64,000 bases of DNA, taken from assembly GCA_037443365.1 (NCBI GenBank), contig JBBIOM010000005.1:5760-69759 (forward strand), given 5' to 3'. Each line of letters begins with the position of its first letter. The stretch's first letter is position 1. The position numbers and the translations under genes were made by a program. This document shows positions 26,538 through 30,209 of this stretch, in pieces. The notes beneath the pieces are model-generated. The model saw only the letters and a list, made by a program, of their open reading frames with translations. It ran no database searches and was not told the DNA's origin. This stretch comes from Armatimonadota bacterium (GTDB taxonomy: Bacteria; Sysuimicrobiota; Sysuimicrobiia; Sysuimicrobiales; Humicultoraceae).

Positions 26538-27167
26538 ATGGCCAACGTGCATGTGTTCGACCACCCGCTGATCCGGCACAAGCTCACGATTCTGCGCGAC
26601 AAGCGCACCGGCCACAAGGAGTTCCGCGAGATCACCGAGGAGCTGGCCGCGCTGATGGCCTACGAGGCGACCCGCTCGCACCCCGTGCGAAGGGTGGAGG
26701 TGGAGACCCCGCTCGCCAAGACCACCGGCTGGTCCATCGCCGGACAGGAGCTCGCGGTGGTCCCGATCTTGCGGGCCGGACTGGTGATGGAGACGGCGAT
26801 TACGCGGCTGATTCCCACCGCGCGGGTCGGACACATAGGCATGTACCGCGATCACGATACCTTGGAGCCGGTCAGCTACTTCGTGAAGCTGCCGGCCGAC
26901 ATCGCCGAGCGCGAGGCGATGATCCTCGATCCCATGCTGGCCACCGGCGGTTCCACGGTGGAGGCGGTAAACACCCTCAAGGCCCACGGATGCCACAACA
27001 TCAAAGTGATGGCGATCATCTCGGCGCCAGAGGGGATCAAGAAGGTCCAGGATGCCCACCCGGACGTTGAGATCTACACCGCCGAGGTGGACAGCCACCT
27101 CAACGACAAGGGCTACATAGTGCCCGGTTTGGGAGACGCGGGCGACCGCCTGTTCGGCACCAAGTAG
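26538..27167 (+). CDS. upp: Uracil phosphoribosyltransferase
   Basis: [41 protein letters not shown]. Confidence 0.97.
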
Positions 27168-27175
27168 ATACGCCC

Positions 27176-28909
27176 GTGAGCGTCGTCGCCGCCGTCCTGG
27201 CCTTCCTTCTGGGAAGCATCCCCGCCGGGTACGCGGTCGGCCGGCTCCGCCGCGGCGTGGATCTGCGCCGCTACAGCGCGCACAACCTCGGTCTCGGAAC
27301 GGTTGCGGCCGCGGCCGGGACGCTCACCCTCGCGCTGGCAGCGGCGCTTGACCTCATCAAGGGAGGACTGGCGGTTGCCGCCGCGCGGTTGCTGGGTGGC
27401 GGCGACTGGGCCCTTGCCGCCTCTGCGATTGCGGTCGTGGCCGGGCACGCCTTCTCGCCCTTCTGGCTGCTTGCGCCGCCGGCACGCGCGCGCCTGAAGG
27501 GCACCGCGGTGGTGGCGGGGACGTTGCTTGGGTTGGGTGCCCTGGCCGCGGTTCCGCCGGCTGCGATTGCGGCTGCCGTGGGTGTGGCAGCGCTGAGCCT
27601 GATCCTGCCTTGGATCACTGGCAGGCGCTGGGGCTATCTCTCGCTGGCGACCGTGCTCGCGACGGCCAGCCTTCCTGTGGCACTGTGGGTGCTGGGGGGG
27701 CGAGTGCCCTACCTGGCGCTGTCCGCGGCGCTGGCGCTTATCTCCTTGTGGAACCACAAGGAGCATCTGGCGCGGATCGCCGACGGCACCGAGCCCAGGA
27801 TGGGCGAGCGTCTTCCCCTGCCGCGGCTCCCCGGCGACGATGCCGTCTGCGCGTTTCTGATCCACCCGATGACCGTTGACGACAACTGGGAGGCCGGCAG
27901 GTTTCGCTGGCTCCTGCCCCTGCGCCGCCGCGGACTGATCGGCGACGCGTTCGTTCGGCGATTGGCGCGATTCGTACGGCCCATGAAGGTGGACGACCTC
28001 CACCCGGTGATCACCAGGGACGGCAGGCGCGCGCGCGTCTACCTGATAGGGGTCCCGATGCTGCCCGATCAGATCAGGGCCGACCCCGGCCTGGCCGTGC
28101 GCCGCGCGGTGCAGGCCGCTCACCTGGCCGAGAACCTGGGAGCCACGGTGCTGGGGCTGGGCGCCTACTGGTCCGTTGTGGGTGGCAAGGGCGTCGAGGT
28201 GGCAGGAAGATCCGGGATCGCGGTGACCAACGGCGGCGCTTACACCGCCGGCACCGTGAGGATGGCTGTGCCATTGATACTCGAGCGCCTTCGCTCGCGC
28301 GGCGTCGACCCGTCCGGCGCCACGATCGCGGTGGTCGGCGCAGGCGGCGTCGTGGGATTCGGTATCTGCCGCCAGATAGCCGGGTGTGTGGGACGCCTGA
28401 TCATGCTGGGGACCGATGCCCCACGCCTGGAGCGCTCGCGGGAGCTGCTGGCTCGCCGCCACCCCGGCCTTCGCATCGAGACGACGACCGACCACGCGGC
28501 GCTGCGGCAGGCCGACGCCATCTTCACCGCCACCTCCTCGCCGCGCCCGGTCGTCTTCCCCGAGCACGTCAGGGAGGGGTGCCTCATCATAGACCTGGGA
28601 AGGCCCTACGATGTGGACGAGTCAGTGAAGGCGACACCTGGCGTCGAGGTGATCCCGGGAGGAGTCGTGCGTCTTCCGGGGAATCCCAGGTGGCAAATCA
28701 ACCTGGGGTACGGGCCGGGACTCGTGCCCGCGTGCTTGGCGGAGACGGCGATCATCGCGCTGGACGGCTGCACCCAGCGCGTGAGCCTGGGTGATCGCAC
28801 GAGAGCCGAGGACATCGAGTACCTGATGGCACGGGCGGCCGAGATGGGGTTCGAGGTCATTGCTAGGGCGATCGGGAGGGTCGGTGATGACGAAAGAGCA
28901 GGTGCTTGA
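27176..28909 (+). CDS. Fusion of a PlsY-like membrane acyltransferase domain and an acyl-ACP-reductase-like Rossmann domain
   Basis: N-terminal FLLGSIP, DLIKG, GHAF, HKEHLARIADGTEP; C-terminal AFLIHP, LGLGAYWS, TNGGAYTAG, VVGAGGVVG, DLGRPYDV, ACLAET. Confidence 0.8.
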   Translation: MSVVAAVLAFLLGSIPAGYAVGRLRRGVDLRRYSAHNLGLGTVAAAAGTLTLALAAALDLIKGGLAVAAARLLGGGDWALAASAIAVVAGHAFSPFWLLAPPARARLKGTAVVAGTLLGLGALAAVPPAAIAAAVGVAALSLILPWITGRRWGYLSLATVLATASLPVALWVLGGRVPYLALSAALALISLWNHKEHLARIADGTEPRMGERLPLPRLPGDDAVCAFLIHPMTVDDNWEAGRFRWLLPLRRRGLIGDAFVRRLARFVRPMKVDDLHPVITRDGRRARVYLIGVPMLPDQIRADPGLAVRRAVQAAHLAENLGATVLGLGAYWSVVGGKGVEVAGRSGIAVTNGGAYTAGTVRMAVPLILERLRSRGVDPSGATIAVVGAGGVVGFGICRQIAGCVGRLIMLGTDAPRLERSRELLARRHPGLRIETTTDHAALRQADAIFTATSSPRPVVFPEHVREGCLIIDLGRPYDVDESVKATPGVEVIPGGVVRLPGNPRWQINLGYGPGLVPACLAETAIIALDGCTQRVSLGDRTRAEDIEYLMARAAEMGFEVIARAIGRVGDDERAGA

Positions 28910-30209
28910 GCAGGCCCGCGAGTGGGGTGTGAGGTTCGTCCGCCTGCAGTTCACGGACATCCTGGGCACCCTCAAGAACGTGGAGATACCGGTCGAGCAG
29001 CTCGAGAGGGCCCTCGATAACGAGATCTTGTTCGATGGCTCCTCCATCGAGGGCTTCGTGCGCATAGAAGAGTCGGACATGTACCTCGCGCCCGATCCTG
29101 CGACCTTCGCGCTCTTCCCCTGGAAGAACCGGGGAGGGGCCACGGCGCGCCTGATATGCGACATCCATACCACAGACCGGGAGCCGTTCGCGGGCGATCC
29201 CCGCCACGTGCTGCGGCGCGTTGTGGCCTCCGCCGCGCGCAGCGGGTTCACCATGATGGCCGGGCCCGAGTGCGAGTTCTTCATCTTCCCCACCGACGCC
29301 GACGGCCGGCCGAGGCTGACCACGCACGATCGGGCCGGCTACTTCGACATGGCGCCCGTGGACAAGGGCGAAGAAGCGCGGGCCGACATGGTGACCGCGC
29401 TGACCGCCATGGGCTTCGAGGTCGAGGCAGGGCATCACGAGGTGGCCCACGGTCAGCACGAGATTGACTTCAAGTACACCGATGTGCTGCGCTCGGCCGA
29501 CAACATCGCCACCTTCCGCCTGGTGGTGCGCACGATCGCCCGCCAGCACGGGCTTCACGCGACATTCATGCCCAAGCCCATCGCCGGCATCGCCGGGTCG
29601 GGCATGCACACGCACCAGTCGCTCTACAGCAACGGGACGAACGCCTTCTTCGATCCCCAGGGCCCCTACCAGCTCAGCAAGACCTGCCTCCAGTACGTGG
29701 GCGGGCTGCTGGCCCACGCGCGCGGCATGTGCGCGGTGACAAACCCGCTGGTCAACTCCTACAAGCGCCTCGTGCCCGGTTACGAGGCGCCGGTCTACAT
29801 CGCCTGGGCCGCGCAGAACCGGTCGCCGCTCGTACGCGTCCCGGTGGCGCGCGGGAACGCCACGCGCATCGAACTGCGCATGCCGGATCCGTCCTGCAAC
29901 CCCTACCTGGCCATGGCGGTGATGCTGGCCTCCGGCCTCGACGGCATCGCCAGGGGGCTGGATGCCGGCCCGCCGCTCAACCGCAACATCTACGCGATGA
30001 CCGAGGACGAGCTGGACAAGCTGGGCATTCGCGTTCTCCCCAGGGACCTCAACGAGGCGGTGGACGAGCTCCTGGCCGACGATCTCATGTGCGAGACGCT
30101 CGGCGGGCACATCCTGGACCACCTGACGCGCGCCAAGCGCCTGGAGTACCGGGAGTATGCCACGCGCGTGCACCCCTGGGAGGTAGAGAACTACCTGACG
30201 GCGTTCTAG
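28887..30209 (+). CDS. glnA: Glutamine synthetase type I
   Basis: LQFTDILG, FDGSSIEGFVRIEESDM, HHEVAHGQHEI, FMPKP, GSGMH, NSYKRLVPGYEAP, RIELRMPD. Confidence 0.96.
   Translation: MTKEQVLEQAREWGVRFVRLQFTDILGTLKNVEIPVEQLERALDNEILFDGSSIEGFVRIEESDMYLAPDPATFALFPWKNRGGATARLICDIHTTDREPFAGDPRHVLRRVVASAARSGFTMMAGPECEFFIFPTDADGRPRLTTHDRAGYFDMAPVDKGEEARADMVTALTAMGFEVEAGHHEVAHGQHEIDFKYTDVLRSADNIATFRLVVRTIARQHGLHATFMPKPIAGIAGSGMHTHQSLYSNGTNAFFDPQGPYQLSKTCLQYVGGLLAHARGMCAVTNPLVNSYKRLVPGYEAPVYIAWAAQNRSPLVRVPVARGNATRIELRMPDPSCNPYLAMAVMLASGLDGIARGLDAGPPLNRNIYAMTEDELDKLGIRVLPRDLNEAVDELLADDLMCETLGGHILDHLTRAKRLEYREYATRVHPWEVENYLTAF

Follow-up and report, generated by a model that had tools for sequence, protein, structure and literature searches.

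Bacterial phospholipid synthesis begins with PlsX and PlsY or with PlsB. In Aquifex PlsY, according to the active-site sections of the structural study (Li et al., 2017; PMC5700162), acyl-phosphate is bound by His92, Thr41 and the backbone of Lys104–Ala107, the phosphate of glycerol-3-phosphate (G3P) is clamped by Ser35, Arg45, Lys104 and Asn180, and Ser142 and His177 bind the 2-OH; Ala mutants of the clamp residues lose >92% of activity, and S35, T41, R45 and N180 are each needed for >90% of it. The passage of the same study on a Pfam search of PlsY fusions lists DegV fusions only, which Li et al. read as protecting labile acyl-phosphate at high temperature (PMC5700162). In a second group of enzymes, acyl-acyl carrier protein (ACP) reductase (AAR), PigE and GluTR, a Cys (Cys294 in AAR, Cys296 in PigE) is described as bearing an acyl-thioester that is reduced by NADPH, with the aldehyde channeled to the next enzyme (PMC8341465). 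Here we describe a 577-amino acid (aa) protein that joins relatives of PlsY and of these reductases in one chain. Its open reading frame (ORF), with a GTG start, lies at positions 27176..28909 (+) of the window, that is, the whole stretch of 64,000 nucleotides that was analyzed (contig JBBIOM010000005.1 of an Armatimonadota bacterium), and has full-length homologs at 45–81% identity. The fusion may serve to produce a membrane-lipid precursor of an uncommon kind, or it may circumvent the steps with which lipid synthesis normally opens. The architecture is already visible in public annotation as 'glycerol-3-phosphate acyltransferase'; full-text searches, supplementary files excepted, found no paper describing or testing a PlsY–reductase fusion.

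The N-terminal part (residues 1–215; 27176..27820, +) is a PlsY-like seven-helix membrane domain followed by a conserved linker helix, as judged from Pfam (PF02660, G3P_acyltransf, on residues 8–201 with 82.7 bits, cut-off 24.1), Aquifex PlsY 5xj5 (E 2.6e-15), Foldseek and the helices of an AlphaFold2 model. The C-terminal part (residues ~222–562; 27839..28861, +) is assigned by profiles, PDB matches, Foldseek and a tree as an AAR/PigE-type thioester-reductase domain, within which Pfam places a PF01488 Rossmann match on residues 381–493. A sequence search of the PDB returned AAR 6jzq (E 7e-16; residues 278–567 on AAR 47–342, ~25% identity), PigE 4ppm (8.6e-15) and Aquifex PlsY 5xj5 (2e-14), and as sequence matches all three kinds are far beyond chance. 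The fusion belongs to the PlsY Pfam family and to the AAR/PigE reductase superfamily and lies under the equivalog thresholds of both, scoring 76.8 bits with PlsY TIGR00023 (cut-off 137.2) and 56.6 bits with AAR TIGR04058 (cut-off 449.7); its best NCBIfam match is PigE NF053554 (93.2 bits, cut-off 850; PigE 45–335 on residues 270–561).

An AlphaFold2 model of the whole chain, built on an alignment of 41 homologs, has a mean pLDDT of 90.3 and a pTM of 0.88, with lower pLDDT (67–72) at residues 91–110, and suggests that the two domains are packed in one confident arrangement. With this model Foldseek returned, in order, AAR (TMt 0.73–0.80; for 6jzu, E 1.8e-20 and TMt 0.79), the carmabin 'TAD' domain (0.60–0.67) and PlsY (5xj5–5xj8, 0.77–0.80). 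An earlier note on this DNA, made from the letters alone, had proposed a PlsY-like domain fused to an acyl-ACP-reductase-like domain and had named profile and structure comparison among the ways to check it. Pfam, NCBIfam, the PDB and Foldseek agree on that architecture, with a PlsY fold at the N terminus and the AAR/PigE type at the C terminus, and the C-terminal domain goes with AAR and the PigE type by sequence, fold and tree rather than with unrelated dehydrogenases, the outcome that the note had said would speak against it. Taken as a whole, the protein is a two-domain membrane enzyme of a conserved family.

In the reductase domain, Cys520 (28733..28735, +), within PACLAET, aligns with Cys294 of AAR, the acyl-enzyme nucleophile, and is invariant in 41/41 aligned homologs and in 74/74 loci (the window and 73 related loci, which are the rows of the residue counts by locus given here). 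Alignments also place the Rossmann GxGxxG motif GAGGVVG at residues 388–394 (28337..28357, +) and an invariant R417 (28424-28426, +) opposite an Arg of AAR. Among the aligned homologs G388, A389, G391, V393 and R417 are invariant, and GAGGVVG, R417, ATS and DLGRP (DxGRP) are invariant or nearly so; one conservation alignment comprised P0001 and 111 homologs, with the self-match and 8 sequences <560 aa left out. Every motif that the earlier note cited is found where it had put it in the 577-aa ORF, including FLIHP (227–231), GLGA (327–330), TNGGAYTAG (351–359) and ACLAET (519–524), and its conserved Cys in an AAR-type fold is borne out. By these features the C-terminal domain is an apparent AAR/PigE-type reductase, with Cys520 as predicted nucleophile and an intact NAD(P)H site. 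We take the AAR–PigE thioester-reductase superfamily to be COG5322.

The comparison with characterized relatives is instructive in both directions. With cyanobacterial AAR (6JZQ/6JZU/6JZY) the fusion has in common the whole domain, the catalytic Cys, and the GxGxxG, TxGxxxTA and GLGxxxS motifs, but it is joined to a membrane domain, is not cyanobacterial, and has no ADO (aldehyde decarbonylase) partner found in its genome. Since a search for ADO (PF11266) found it in 0/5 genomes, with a Synechococcus positive control that worked, the fusion is not in an alkane pathway. PigE (4PPM, NF053554) and TamH have the same Cys, and PigE residues 45–335 supply the best NCBIfam match, whereas the fusion is without an aminotransferase domain (no PF00202, class-III aminotransferase, in a Pfam scan of the protein) and does not lie in a pigment gene cluster. 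The carmabin 'TAD' domain (9E4S/9E56 and others), the second-best structural neighbor (TMt 0.60–0.67), is 15–16% identical; its entries show NAD(H) and a Cys–CoA disulfide, and it is part of an assembly line, with a function known from the entry titles. In the PlsY–DegV (FakB-like) fusions described by Li et al. (2017), a soluble acyl-handling C-terminal domain is likewise carried on PlsY, in thermophiles; by description, the partner there is a fatty-acid-binding protein, and here it is a Cys/NAD(P)H reductase.

Compared with Aquifex PlsY (5XJ5–5XJ9), the N-terminal domain has in common the seven-helix fold, D59/K62/G63, His92 (H91), Lys104 (K108) with its K-G-x-A loop, Ser142 (S156), His177 (H194) and the C-terminal amphipathic helix motif, whereas it differs in S35A, G36H, T41G, N42T, R45A and N180H, in a 9–10-residue insertion before the loop, in a new Arg106 and in the C-terminal 360-aa reductase. 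These equivalences come from HMMER alignments to 5xj5 and from family alignments, which uphold the altered PlsY motifs described in the earlier note. Motif 1 reads YSAHNLGLGT (residues 33–42; 27272..27301, +) and contains the first four replacements, with that of Arg45 nearby. His91, the family-specific insertion and the loop R106-L-K108-G-T-A, which replaces GGKGVA (RLKG being residues 106–109), lie at 27443..27508 (+), and Lys108 sits behind the insertion. Where the last helix ends and the linker follows, W192-N-H194-K-E-H197...R200...DGTEPR (27749..27799, +), H194 stands at the place of PlsY H177, and H197 takes that of N180. Of the G3P clamp, one residue in four is retained (A35, A45, K108, H197); in the acyl-phosphate site H91 is kept, T41 has become G, and the loop reads RLKGTA after the insertion.

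Across the 74 loci, G39, D59, K62 and H91 are invariant, bar three gapped rows; W192, K195, E196 and R200 are found in 74/74, and R106 in 73/74. Other positions vary: 35 (A 34, P 20, S 8, V 6), 36 (H 38, Y 30), 41 (E 43, G 15, T 5), 45 (R 40, A 16, K 9), 108 (R 41, K 30), 194 (H 25, F 23, Y 22) and 197 (N 49, H 24). A changed substrate for the PlsY-derived domain is plausible. One could also regard this domain as a mere membrane anchor or regulatory relic, with the tethered AAR making aldehyde or alcohol for a non-membrane purpose, as the degraded catalytic and binding residues of PlsY and the housekeeping genes around the fusion might suggest. Such an anchor would not, however, explain polar residues inside the PlsY fold that are invariant across phyla (G39, D59, K62, H91, R106, W192, K195, E196, R200) or the confident packing of the domains; the ADO result in the five genomes and the genomes that have only the fusion, described below, which argue for a core lipid role, also count against it, and of the readings discussed here we find it the most improbable.

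The reading that we favor, at a probability of roughly 45%, is that the fusion works at the membrane as a reductase of acyl thioesters, and that the fatty aldehyde so formed goes into a reduced-chain lipid, for example one of the N-glyceroyl-alkylamine type. Cys520 would accept the acyl chain of a thioester, either acyl-ACP or acyl-CoA, and NAD(P)H would reduce it there to the fatty aldehyde at the cytoplasmic face of the membrane. The chain would then enter the groove that the PlsY-derived domain forms in the membrane, and the remodeled polar pocket of this domain would help to assemble a lipid precursor with a reduced chain and no ester bond. The likeliest product would be of the alkylamine or N-glyceroyl-alkylamine type known from Deinococcus–Thermus; ordinary 1-acyl-glycerol-3-phosphate would probably not be the product, since the window's genome can make it with its canonical plsX/plsY pair. 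This would be one tentative form of the coupling between acyl reduction and the assembly of ether, diol or alkylamine lipids that the earlier note put forward. Several features count for a reductive role: the NAD(P)H site is as conserved as the Cys, the characterized relatives of the C-terminal domain all act as thioester or tRNA-ester reductases, and the PlsY residues needed for G3P acylation are replaced (S35A, T41G, R45A, N180H). The best match to PigE, together with the aminotransferase-fused reductases that are the nearest outgroups in the tree described below, counts for an alkylamine-type product.

An alkylamine phosphoglycolipid of Deinococcus–Thermus has been known since the 1980s. 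The family of the fusion is near-universal in this group, and both Thermus thermophilus and Deinococcus radiodurans are genetically tractable. The major phosphoglycolipid that Deinococcus and Thermus share is built on N-(D-glyceroyl)alkylamine, as one account has it (PMC3398001), and the enzymes for this signature lipid, to which none had been assigned, were called 'not identified' in a statement of 2022 (PMC9636437). Systems that combine a reductase with a transaminase are described as making alkylamines via aldehydes. A 2025 title by Bale et al. reportedly extends the N-glyceroyl-alkylamine lipid class to Bacillota. Moorella thermoacetica has an entry for this lipid class in a published table (PMC13274423).

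The family is widespread. Of 8000 candidates scored in a word-indexed protein search, 234 reached E<=0.001; the best 120 of the 234 are 47–100% identical to the fusion, mostly 570–615 aa long and, where names are given, called 'glycerol-3-phosphate acyltransferase' or 'predicted amino acid dehydrogenase'. An exhaustive search of a representative library with the C-terminal domain gave 2346 matches at E<=1e-3 and 96 at E<=1e-30. In species genomes there are 291 loci with a relative of the fusion, and for the best 80 of these we have organism names and identities. Within the best 80 the closest is from 'Candidatus Nitrosymbiomonas' (81% identity), followed by orthologs in Candidatus Fervidifonticultor (62–67%) and Candidatus Thermofontivivens (54%), in Bacillota metagenome-assembled genomes (MAGs), including Thermaerobacter marianensis (45–56%), in Armatimonadota and Actinomycetota MAGs (44–49%), and in Deinococcus, Thermus, Meiothermus and other Deinococcota (45–48%). 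The hot-spring genera among these relatives presumably belong to the proposed phylum Sysuimicrobiota (CSP1-3). In Deinococcota, a match to the C-terminal domain at E<=1e-20 is present in 197/201 sampled genomes, almost always near 1e-100 and in open frames of ~560–600 aa; the PlsY-like fusions that the earlier note mentioned for Deinococcus–Thermus are therefore real. The phylum of the window in the GTDB classification is represented by 94 genomes of one order, of which 87 have some match to the C-terminal domain: 29 contain an ortholog of the fusion (E<1e-100, read from the table), and 58 are matched only by a paralog, 33–38% identical, and are without the fusion.

In a second clade of fusions the PlsY domain is canonical throughout (GSGNIGATN and SGGK(S)VAT, PF02660 135–154 bits); its three named matches are from Berkelbacteria, a 'Patescibacteria group' organism and an unclassified bin. 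Among 80 metagenome loci retrieved for this clade, 8 were matched beyond the PlsY part, and six of these were examined. In a tree of 125 C-terminal domains (IQ-TREE quick search, LG+G4), the window's clade and the canonical, Patescibacteria clade form one group (SH-aLRT 99) of 18 rows, three of them mislabeled by a crude architecture rule and one a fragment; its nearest outgroups are aminotransferase-fused reductases, and the fusion P0152 is placed elsewhere. The insertion between His92 and the GGKG loop is common to both fused clades. Within the window's clade, and sister to the window's group, lies a near-canonical subgroup from Armatimonadota and Actinomycetota MAGs (L025, L029, L032, P0083) that retains Ser35, Thr41, Asn42, Arg45, His177 and Asn180, and in which His36 and Arg106 are already present. 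We infer that the ancestral fused PlsY domain was canonical, that His36 and Arg106 were probably gained first, and that the window's lineage and Deinococcota afterwards lost the clamp in parallel, each in its own way. The canonical fusion in Patescibacteria bears on how such reduced bacteria acquire membrane lipids. In one Patescibacteria locus (L085:8001-9736), a simple ORF call splits the fusion match into two ORFs of 314 and 238 aa; a frameshift could explain this, as could a stop codon or faulty assembly.

Comparison across genomes links the family to the step with which the assembly of membrane lipids begins. The genome of the window (a 2.2 Mb assembly, 97.7% complete) contains plsX (356 bits) and, directly downstream of der, a canonical plsY (PF02660 176 bits, GSGNIGASN and GGGGKGVAT), the separate copy for which the earlier note had proposed to look; the fusion differs from this housekeeping PlsY in not being the der-linked copy. 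Since both canonical genes are present, the fusion is not the only route of this genome to lysophosphatidic acid. PlsX is likewise present in 61/61 sampled Deinococcota genomes, all with the fusion, and the window's genus has both the fusion and canonical PlsY, as do the three Deinococcota genomes that were checked for it. That the fusion is kept beside a complete PlsX/PlsY pair in these lineages suggests a different product.

The rest of the window's phylum gives another picture, one that has to be set against the reductive reading. PlsX (PF02504) was found in 13 and not found in 16 of the 29 genomes with the fusion; for the 65 other genomes the numbers are 58 and 7. These counts include two genomes flagged as unpublished, G228 (fusion, without PlsX) and G220 (no fusion, PlsX), on neither of which any conclusion rests; without them the counts are 13 found and 15 not found among 28, and 57 and 7 among 64. 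Three of the 7 genomes with neither fusion nor PlsX belong to one genus and are 94–99% complete, and the other four are 83–89% complete and from genera in which other members have PlsX. Throughout the phylum, every genome in which canonical PlsY (>=170 bits) was seen has PlsX too. In 12 genomes (G204–207, G210–212, G221, G224–226 and G237, which are 97, 97, 94, 84, 96, 98, 91, 78, 91, 98, 59 and 72% complete, in this order, so that nine are at least 91% complete) the fusion is the only PF02660 match and PlsX was not found. That the fusion is the only PlsY-family gene in 12 genomes in which plsX was not found is what is new here: with FakB likewise not found in the four of them searched for it, these genomes show no known route to acyl-phosphate or to the first acyl-glycerol-phosphate except the fusion, and their membrane synthesis seemingly begins in an undescribed way.

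These genomes are the first of several observations that weigh against our reading. A repeat search for PlsX in G204 (a 3.2 Mb assembly in 4 contigs), G225, G211, G210 and G205 gave 0/5, and a search for FakB/DegV in G204, G225, G211, G210 and the window's genome also gave 0/5. PlsC-type acyltransferases (PF01553) number 2, 2, 4 and 2 in four fusion-only genomes and 2 in the window's genome, and CdsA is present in 5/5 genomes checked. Since PlsC and CdsA are kept in these four fusion-only genomes, where PlsX and FakB were not found, their lipid synthesis apparently depends on the fusion for its first step. One of them, G210, is the Fervidifonticultor genome of locus L017, in which the motifs of the fusion are altered as in the window's protein. 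In G297–G299, from the near-canonical subgroup, the fusion is the only PF02660 match (147–153 bits) and PlsX is present. In two of six Patescibacteria loci examined (L084, L085), gpsA lies immediately downstream of the canonical PlsY fusion. As to the residues, His36 and Arg106, conserved in the family, could rebuild a phosphate site, and as to the context, no aminotransferase or lipid gene is a conserved neighbor of the fusion in the compared loci. Moorella and other N-glyceroyl-alkylamine Bacillota are not among the best 120 of 548 matches to a Thermaerobacter query, many of which are nameless, and may still carry the fusion. Finally, a Deinococcus PLD-like (PLDc_2) gene considered as a phosphatidyl-transferase partner was dropped, as a search without a positive control found it in 0/94 genomes of the window's phylum. 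In 10 Deinococcus loci this gene, which encodes 508 aa (for example L058:2697-4223, +), adjoins ispH and is found one to two genes downstream from the fusion.

A non-reductive acyltransferase that bypasses PlsX fits the same comparative data nearly as well. The fusion would then be a self-contained, PlsX-independent first acyltransferase that passes the chain of acyl-ACP via Cys520, without net reduction, to G3P or a close analog, either by phosphorolysis to acyl-phosphate inside the phosphate hole of PlsY or by direct attack; the product would be lysophosphatidic acid, and His36 and Arg106 would replace Ser35 and Arg45 as phosphate ligands. This would account for the skew in PlsX, not found in 16/29 fusion genomes versus 7/65 without the fusion, for the fusion as sole PF02660 match in 12 of the 16 and for the four high-quality genomes of this kind that are without FakB and keep two to four PlsC-type acyltransferases and CdsA. 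It would also fit the retained H91 and K-G-x-A loop with R106 in nearly every locus, and a canonical ancestral PlsY domain, seen beside gpsA in the Patescibacteria clade and as the sole PlsY in G297–G299. Precedent for a C-terminal partner that supplies the donor is offered by the PlsY–DegV fusions, for which channeling of acyl-phosphate in thermophiles is argued (Li et al., 2017; PMC5700162).

An additional PlsY-like paralog (104–128 bits) is present in the remaining four fusion genomes in which PlsX was not found, and the loss of canonical residues in such copies fits the acyltransferase as well: seven stand-alone PlsY-family copies, one of them a 148.8-bit copy from a non-fusion genome, are all without the canonical His177/Asn180 motif, and the six low-scoring ones are also without Ser35 and Thr41. 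However, a non-redox transfer has no need of an NAD(P)H site, which including R417 is conserved like the Cys, and the characterized relatives of the domain are all reductases. Moreover, S35, T41, R45 and N180, on each of which more than 90% of the activity of Aquifex PlsY is reported to depend, are all replaced, and the enzyme would be redundant where PlsX (61/61 Deinococcota) or canonical PlsY (the window's genus) coexists with it; G297–G299 also have PlsX. On balance we think this acyltransferase somewhat unlikely, and below the reductive reading. The stand-alone paralogs include L165–L170 (from G295, G217, G209, G229 and G285), which are ~205–240 aa long, score 85–128 bits with PF02660 and keep GGKGVAT-like loops; several are in genomes without PlsX. 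As a test for an acceptor, GpsA was uninformative, with PF07479 in only 6/94 genomes regardless of the fusion; this GpsA C-terminal domain was not found in the window's genome, though PlsY is widespread in its phylum.

The retained His92 and K-G-x-A ligands, in a domain whose G3P clamp is gone, would also suit an acyl-phosphate reductase, in which acyl-phosphate from PlsX is bound in the PlsY-like domain and attacked by Cys520, and NAD(P)H yields the aldehyde, a chemistry that would resemble that of aspartate-semialdehyde or glyceraldehyde-3-phosphate dehydrogenase. Acyl-phosphate is perhaps the only intermediate that could be common to both domain families, and PlsX is present in the window's genome, in G297–G299 and in 61/61 Deinococcota. 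Against this, PlsX was not found in 16/29 fusion genomes, nor FakB in any of the four of them tested, Thr41, which holds the acyl-phosphate carbonyl, is replaced, and the known relatives are described as acting on thioesters or a tRNA ester, not on acyl-phosphates. We disfavor it because most fusion-only genomes are without a known source of acyl-phosphate, and rate it as very improbable, if slightly less so than the anchor.

A more specific form of the alkylamine idea gives the fusion the role of the missing N-glyceroyl-alkylamine backbone synthase, which would couple alkylamine to a water-soluble acyl-phosphate of glycerate; this is unlikely, and distinctly more so than the acyltransferase. 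The reductase domain would make the aldehyde, a separate transaminase would convert it to alkylamine, and the remodeled G3P and phosphate-hole pocket of PlsY would bind 1,3-bisphosphoglycerate while the acyl groove binds the alkylamine, a PlsY chemistry turned 'inside out'. The product would be N-(3-phosphoglyceroyl)alkylamine, a retro-amide isostere of lysophosphatidic acid, which lineages without plsX and plsY could acylate via PlsC and activate via CdsA. Its appeal, doubtful as we hold it to be, is that it would reconcile all the observed patterns, and if it were true these bacteria would build their membranes on an amide-linked alkyl backbone. Class-III aminotransferases were considered as a clue to an alkylamine route and, at 5–11 per genome, were uninformative.

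PlsY and reductase domains also occur in other settings. The C-terminal domain is found as a stand-alone protein, in START/polyketide-cyclase fusions, one of which also has PilZ, in class-III aminotransferase fusions, and in a further group of ~700 aa with an unassigned N terminus. Individual architectures of PlsY or reductase domains (P0158, P0249, P0175, P0167 and P0304) include aminotransferase + reductase + AMP-binding (1396 aa), GNAT/FemAB + aminotransferase + reductase (1245 aa), PilZ + START-like + reductase, START-like + reductase, and a PlsY–GpsA fusion. A second, stand-alone relative of the reductase domain (L164; G000 contig 33, 1-1158, −), 35% identical to the C-terminal domain of the fusion, lies in the window's genome outside the window, is cut by the contig end and adjoins a biotin-ligase-like gene and two deoxynucleoside-kinase genes. 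Thermaceae have 4 PF02660 matches per genome, and further PlsY-family proteins of Meiothermus granaticius (L172:2031-3599, −, 522 aa) and Thermus arciformis (L173:318-1637, +, 439 aa) have the PlsY domain at the C terminus, behind a 270–345-aa N-terminal part without a Pfam match.

The genes that surround the fusion in the window are housekeeping genes, in the order prmC, rpiB, glyA (minus strand), upp, fusion, glnA, dCMP-type deaminase and DEAD-box helicase. When the window was compared with 73 of 80 related loci, no partner gene was kept across lineages; contexts are lineage-specific and housekeeping. Downstream, the likeliest start codon of glnA (28887..30209, +) is ATG 28887, which GGGAGG precedes by 8 nt, and with this start the 23-nt overlap with the fusion ORF that the earlier note reported holds; given the housekeeping surroundings, the overlap is incidental, as the note had allowed. 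Upstream, upp (uracil phosphoribosyltransferase; 26538..27167, +) ends so that the GTG start of the fusion is 8 nt past its stop codon, and upp occupies the −1 position of the fusion in 9 related loci.

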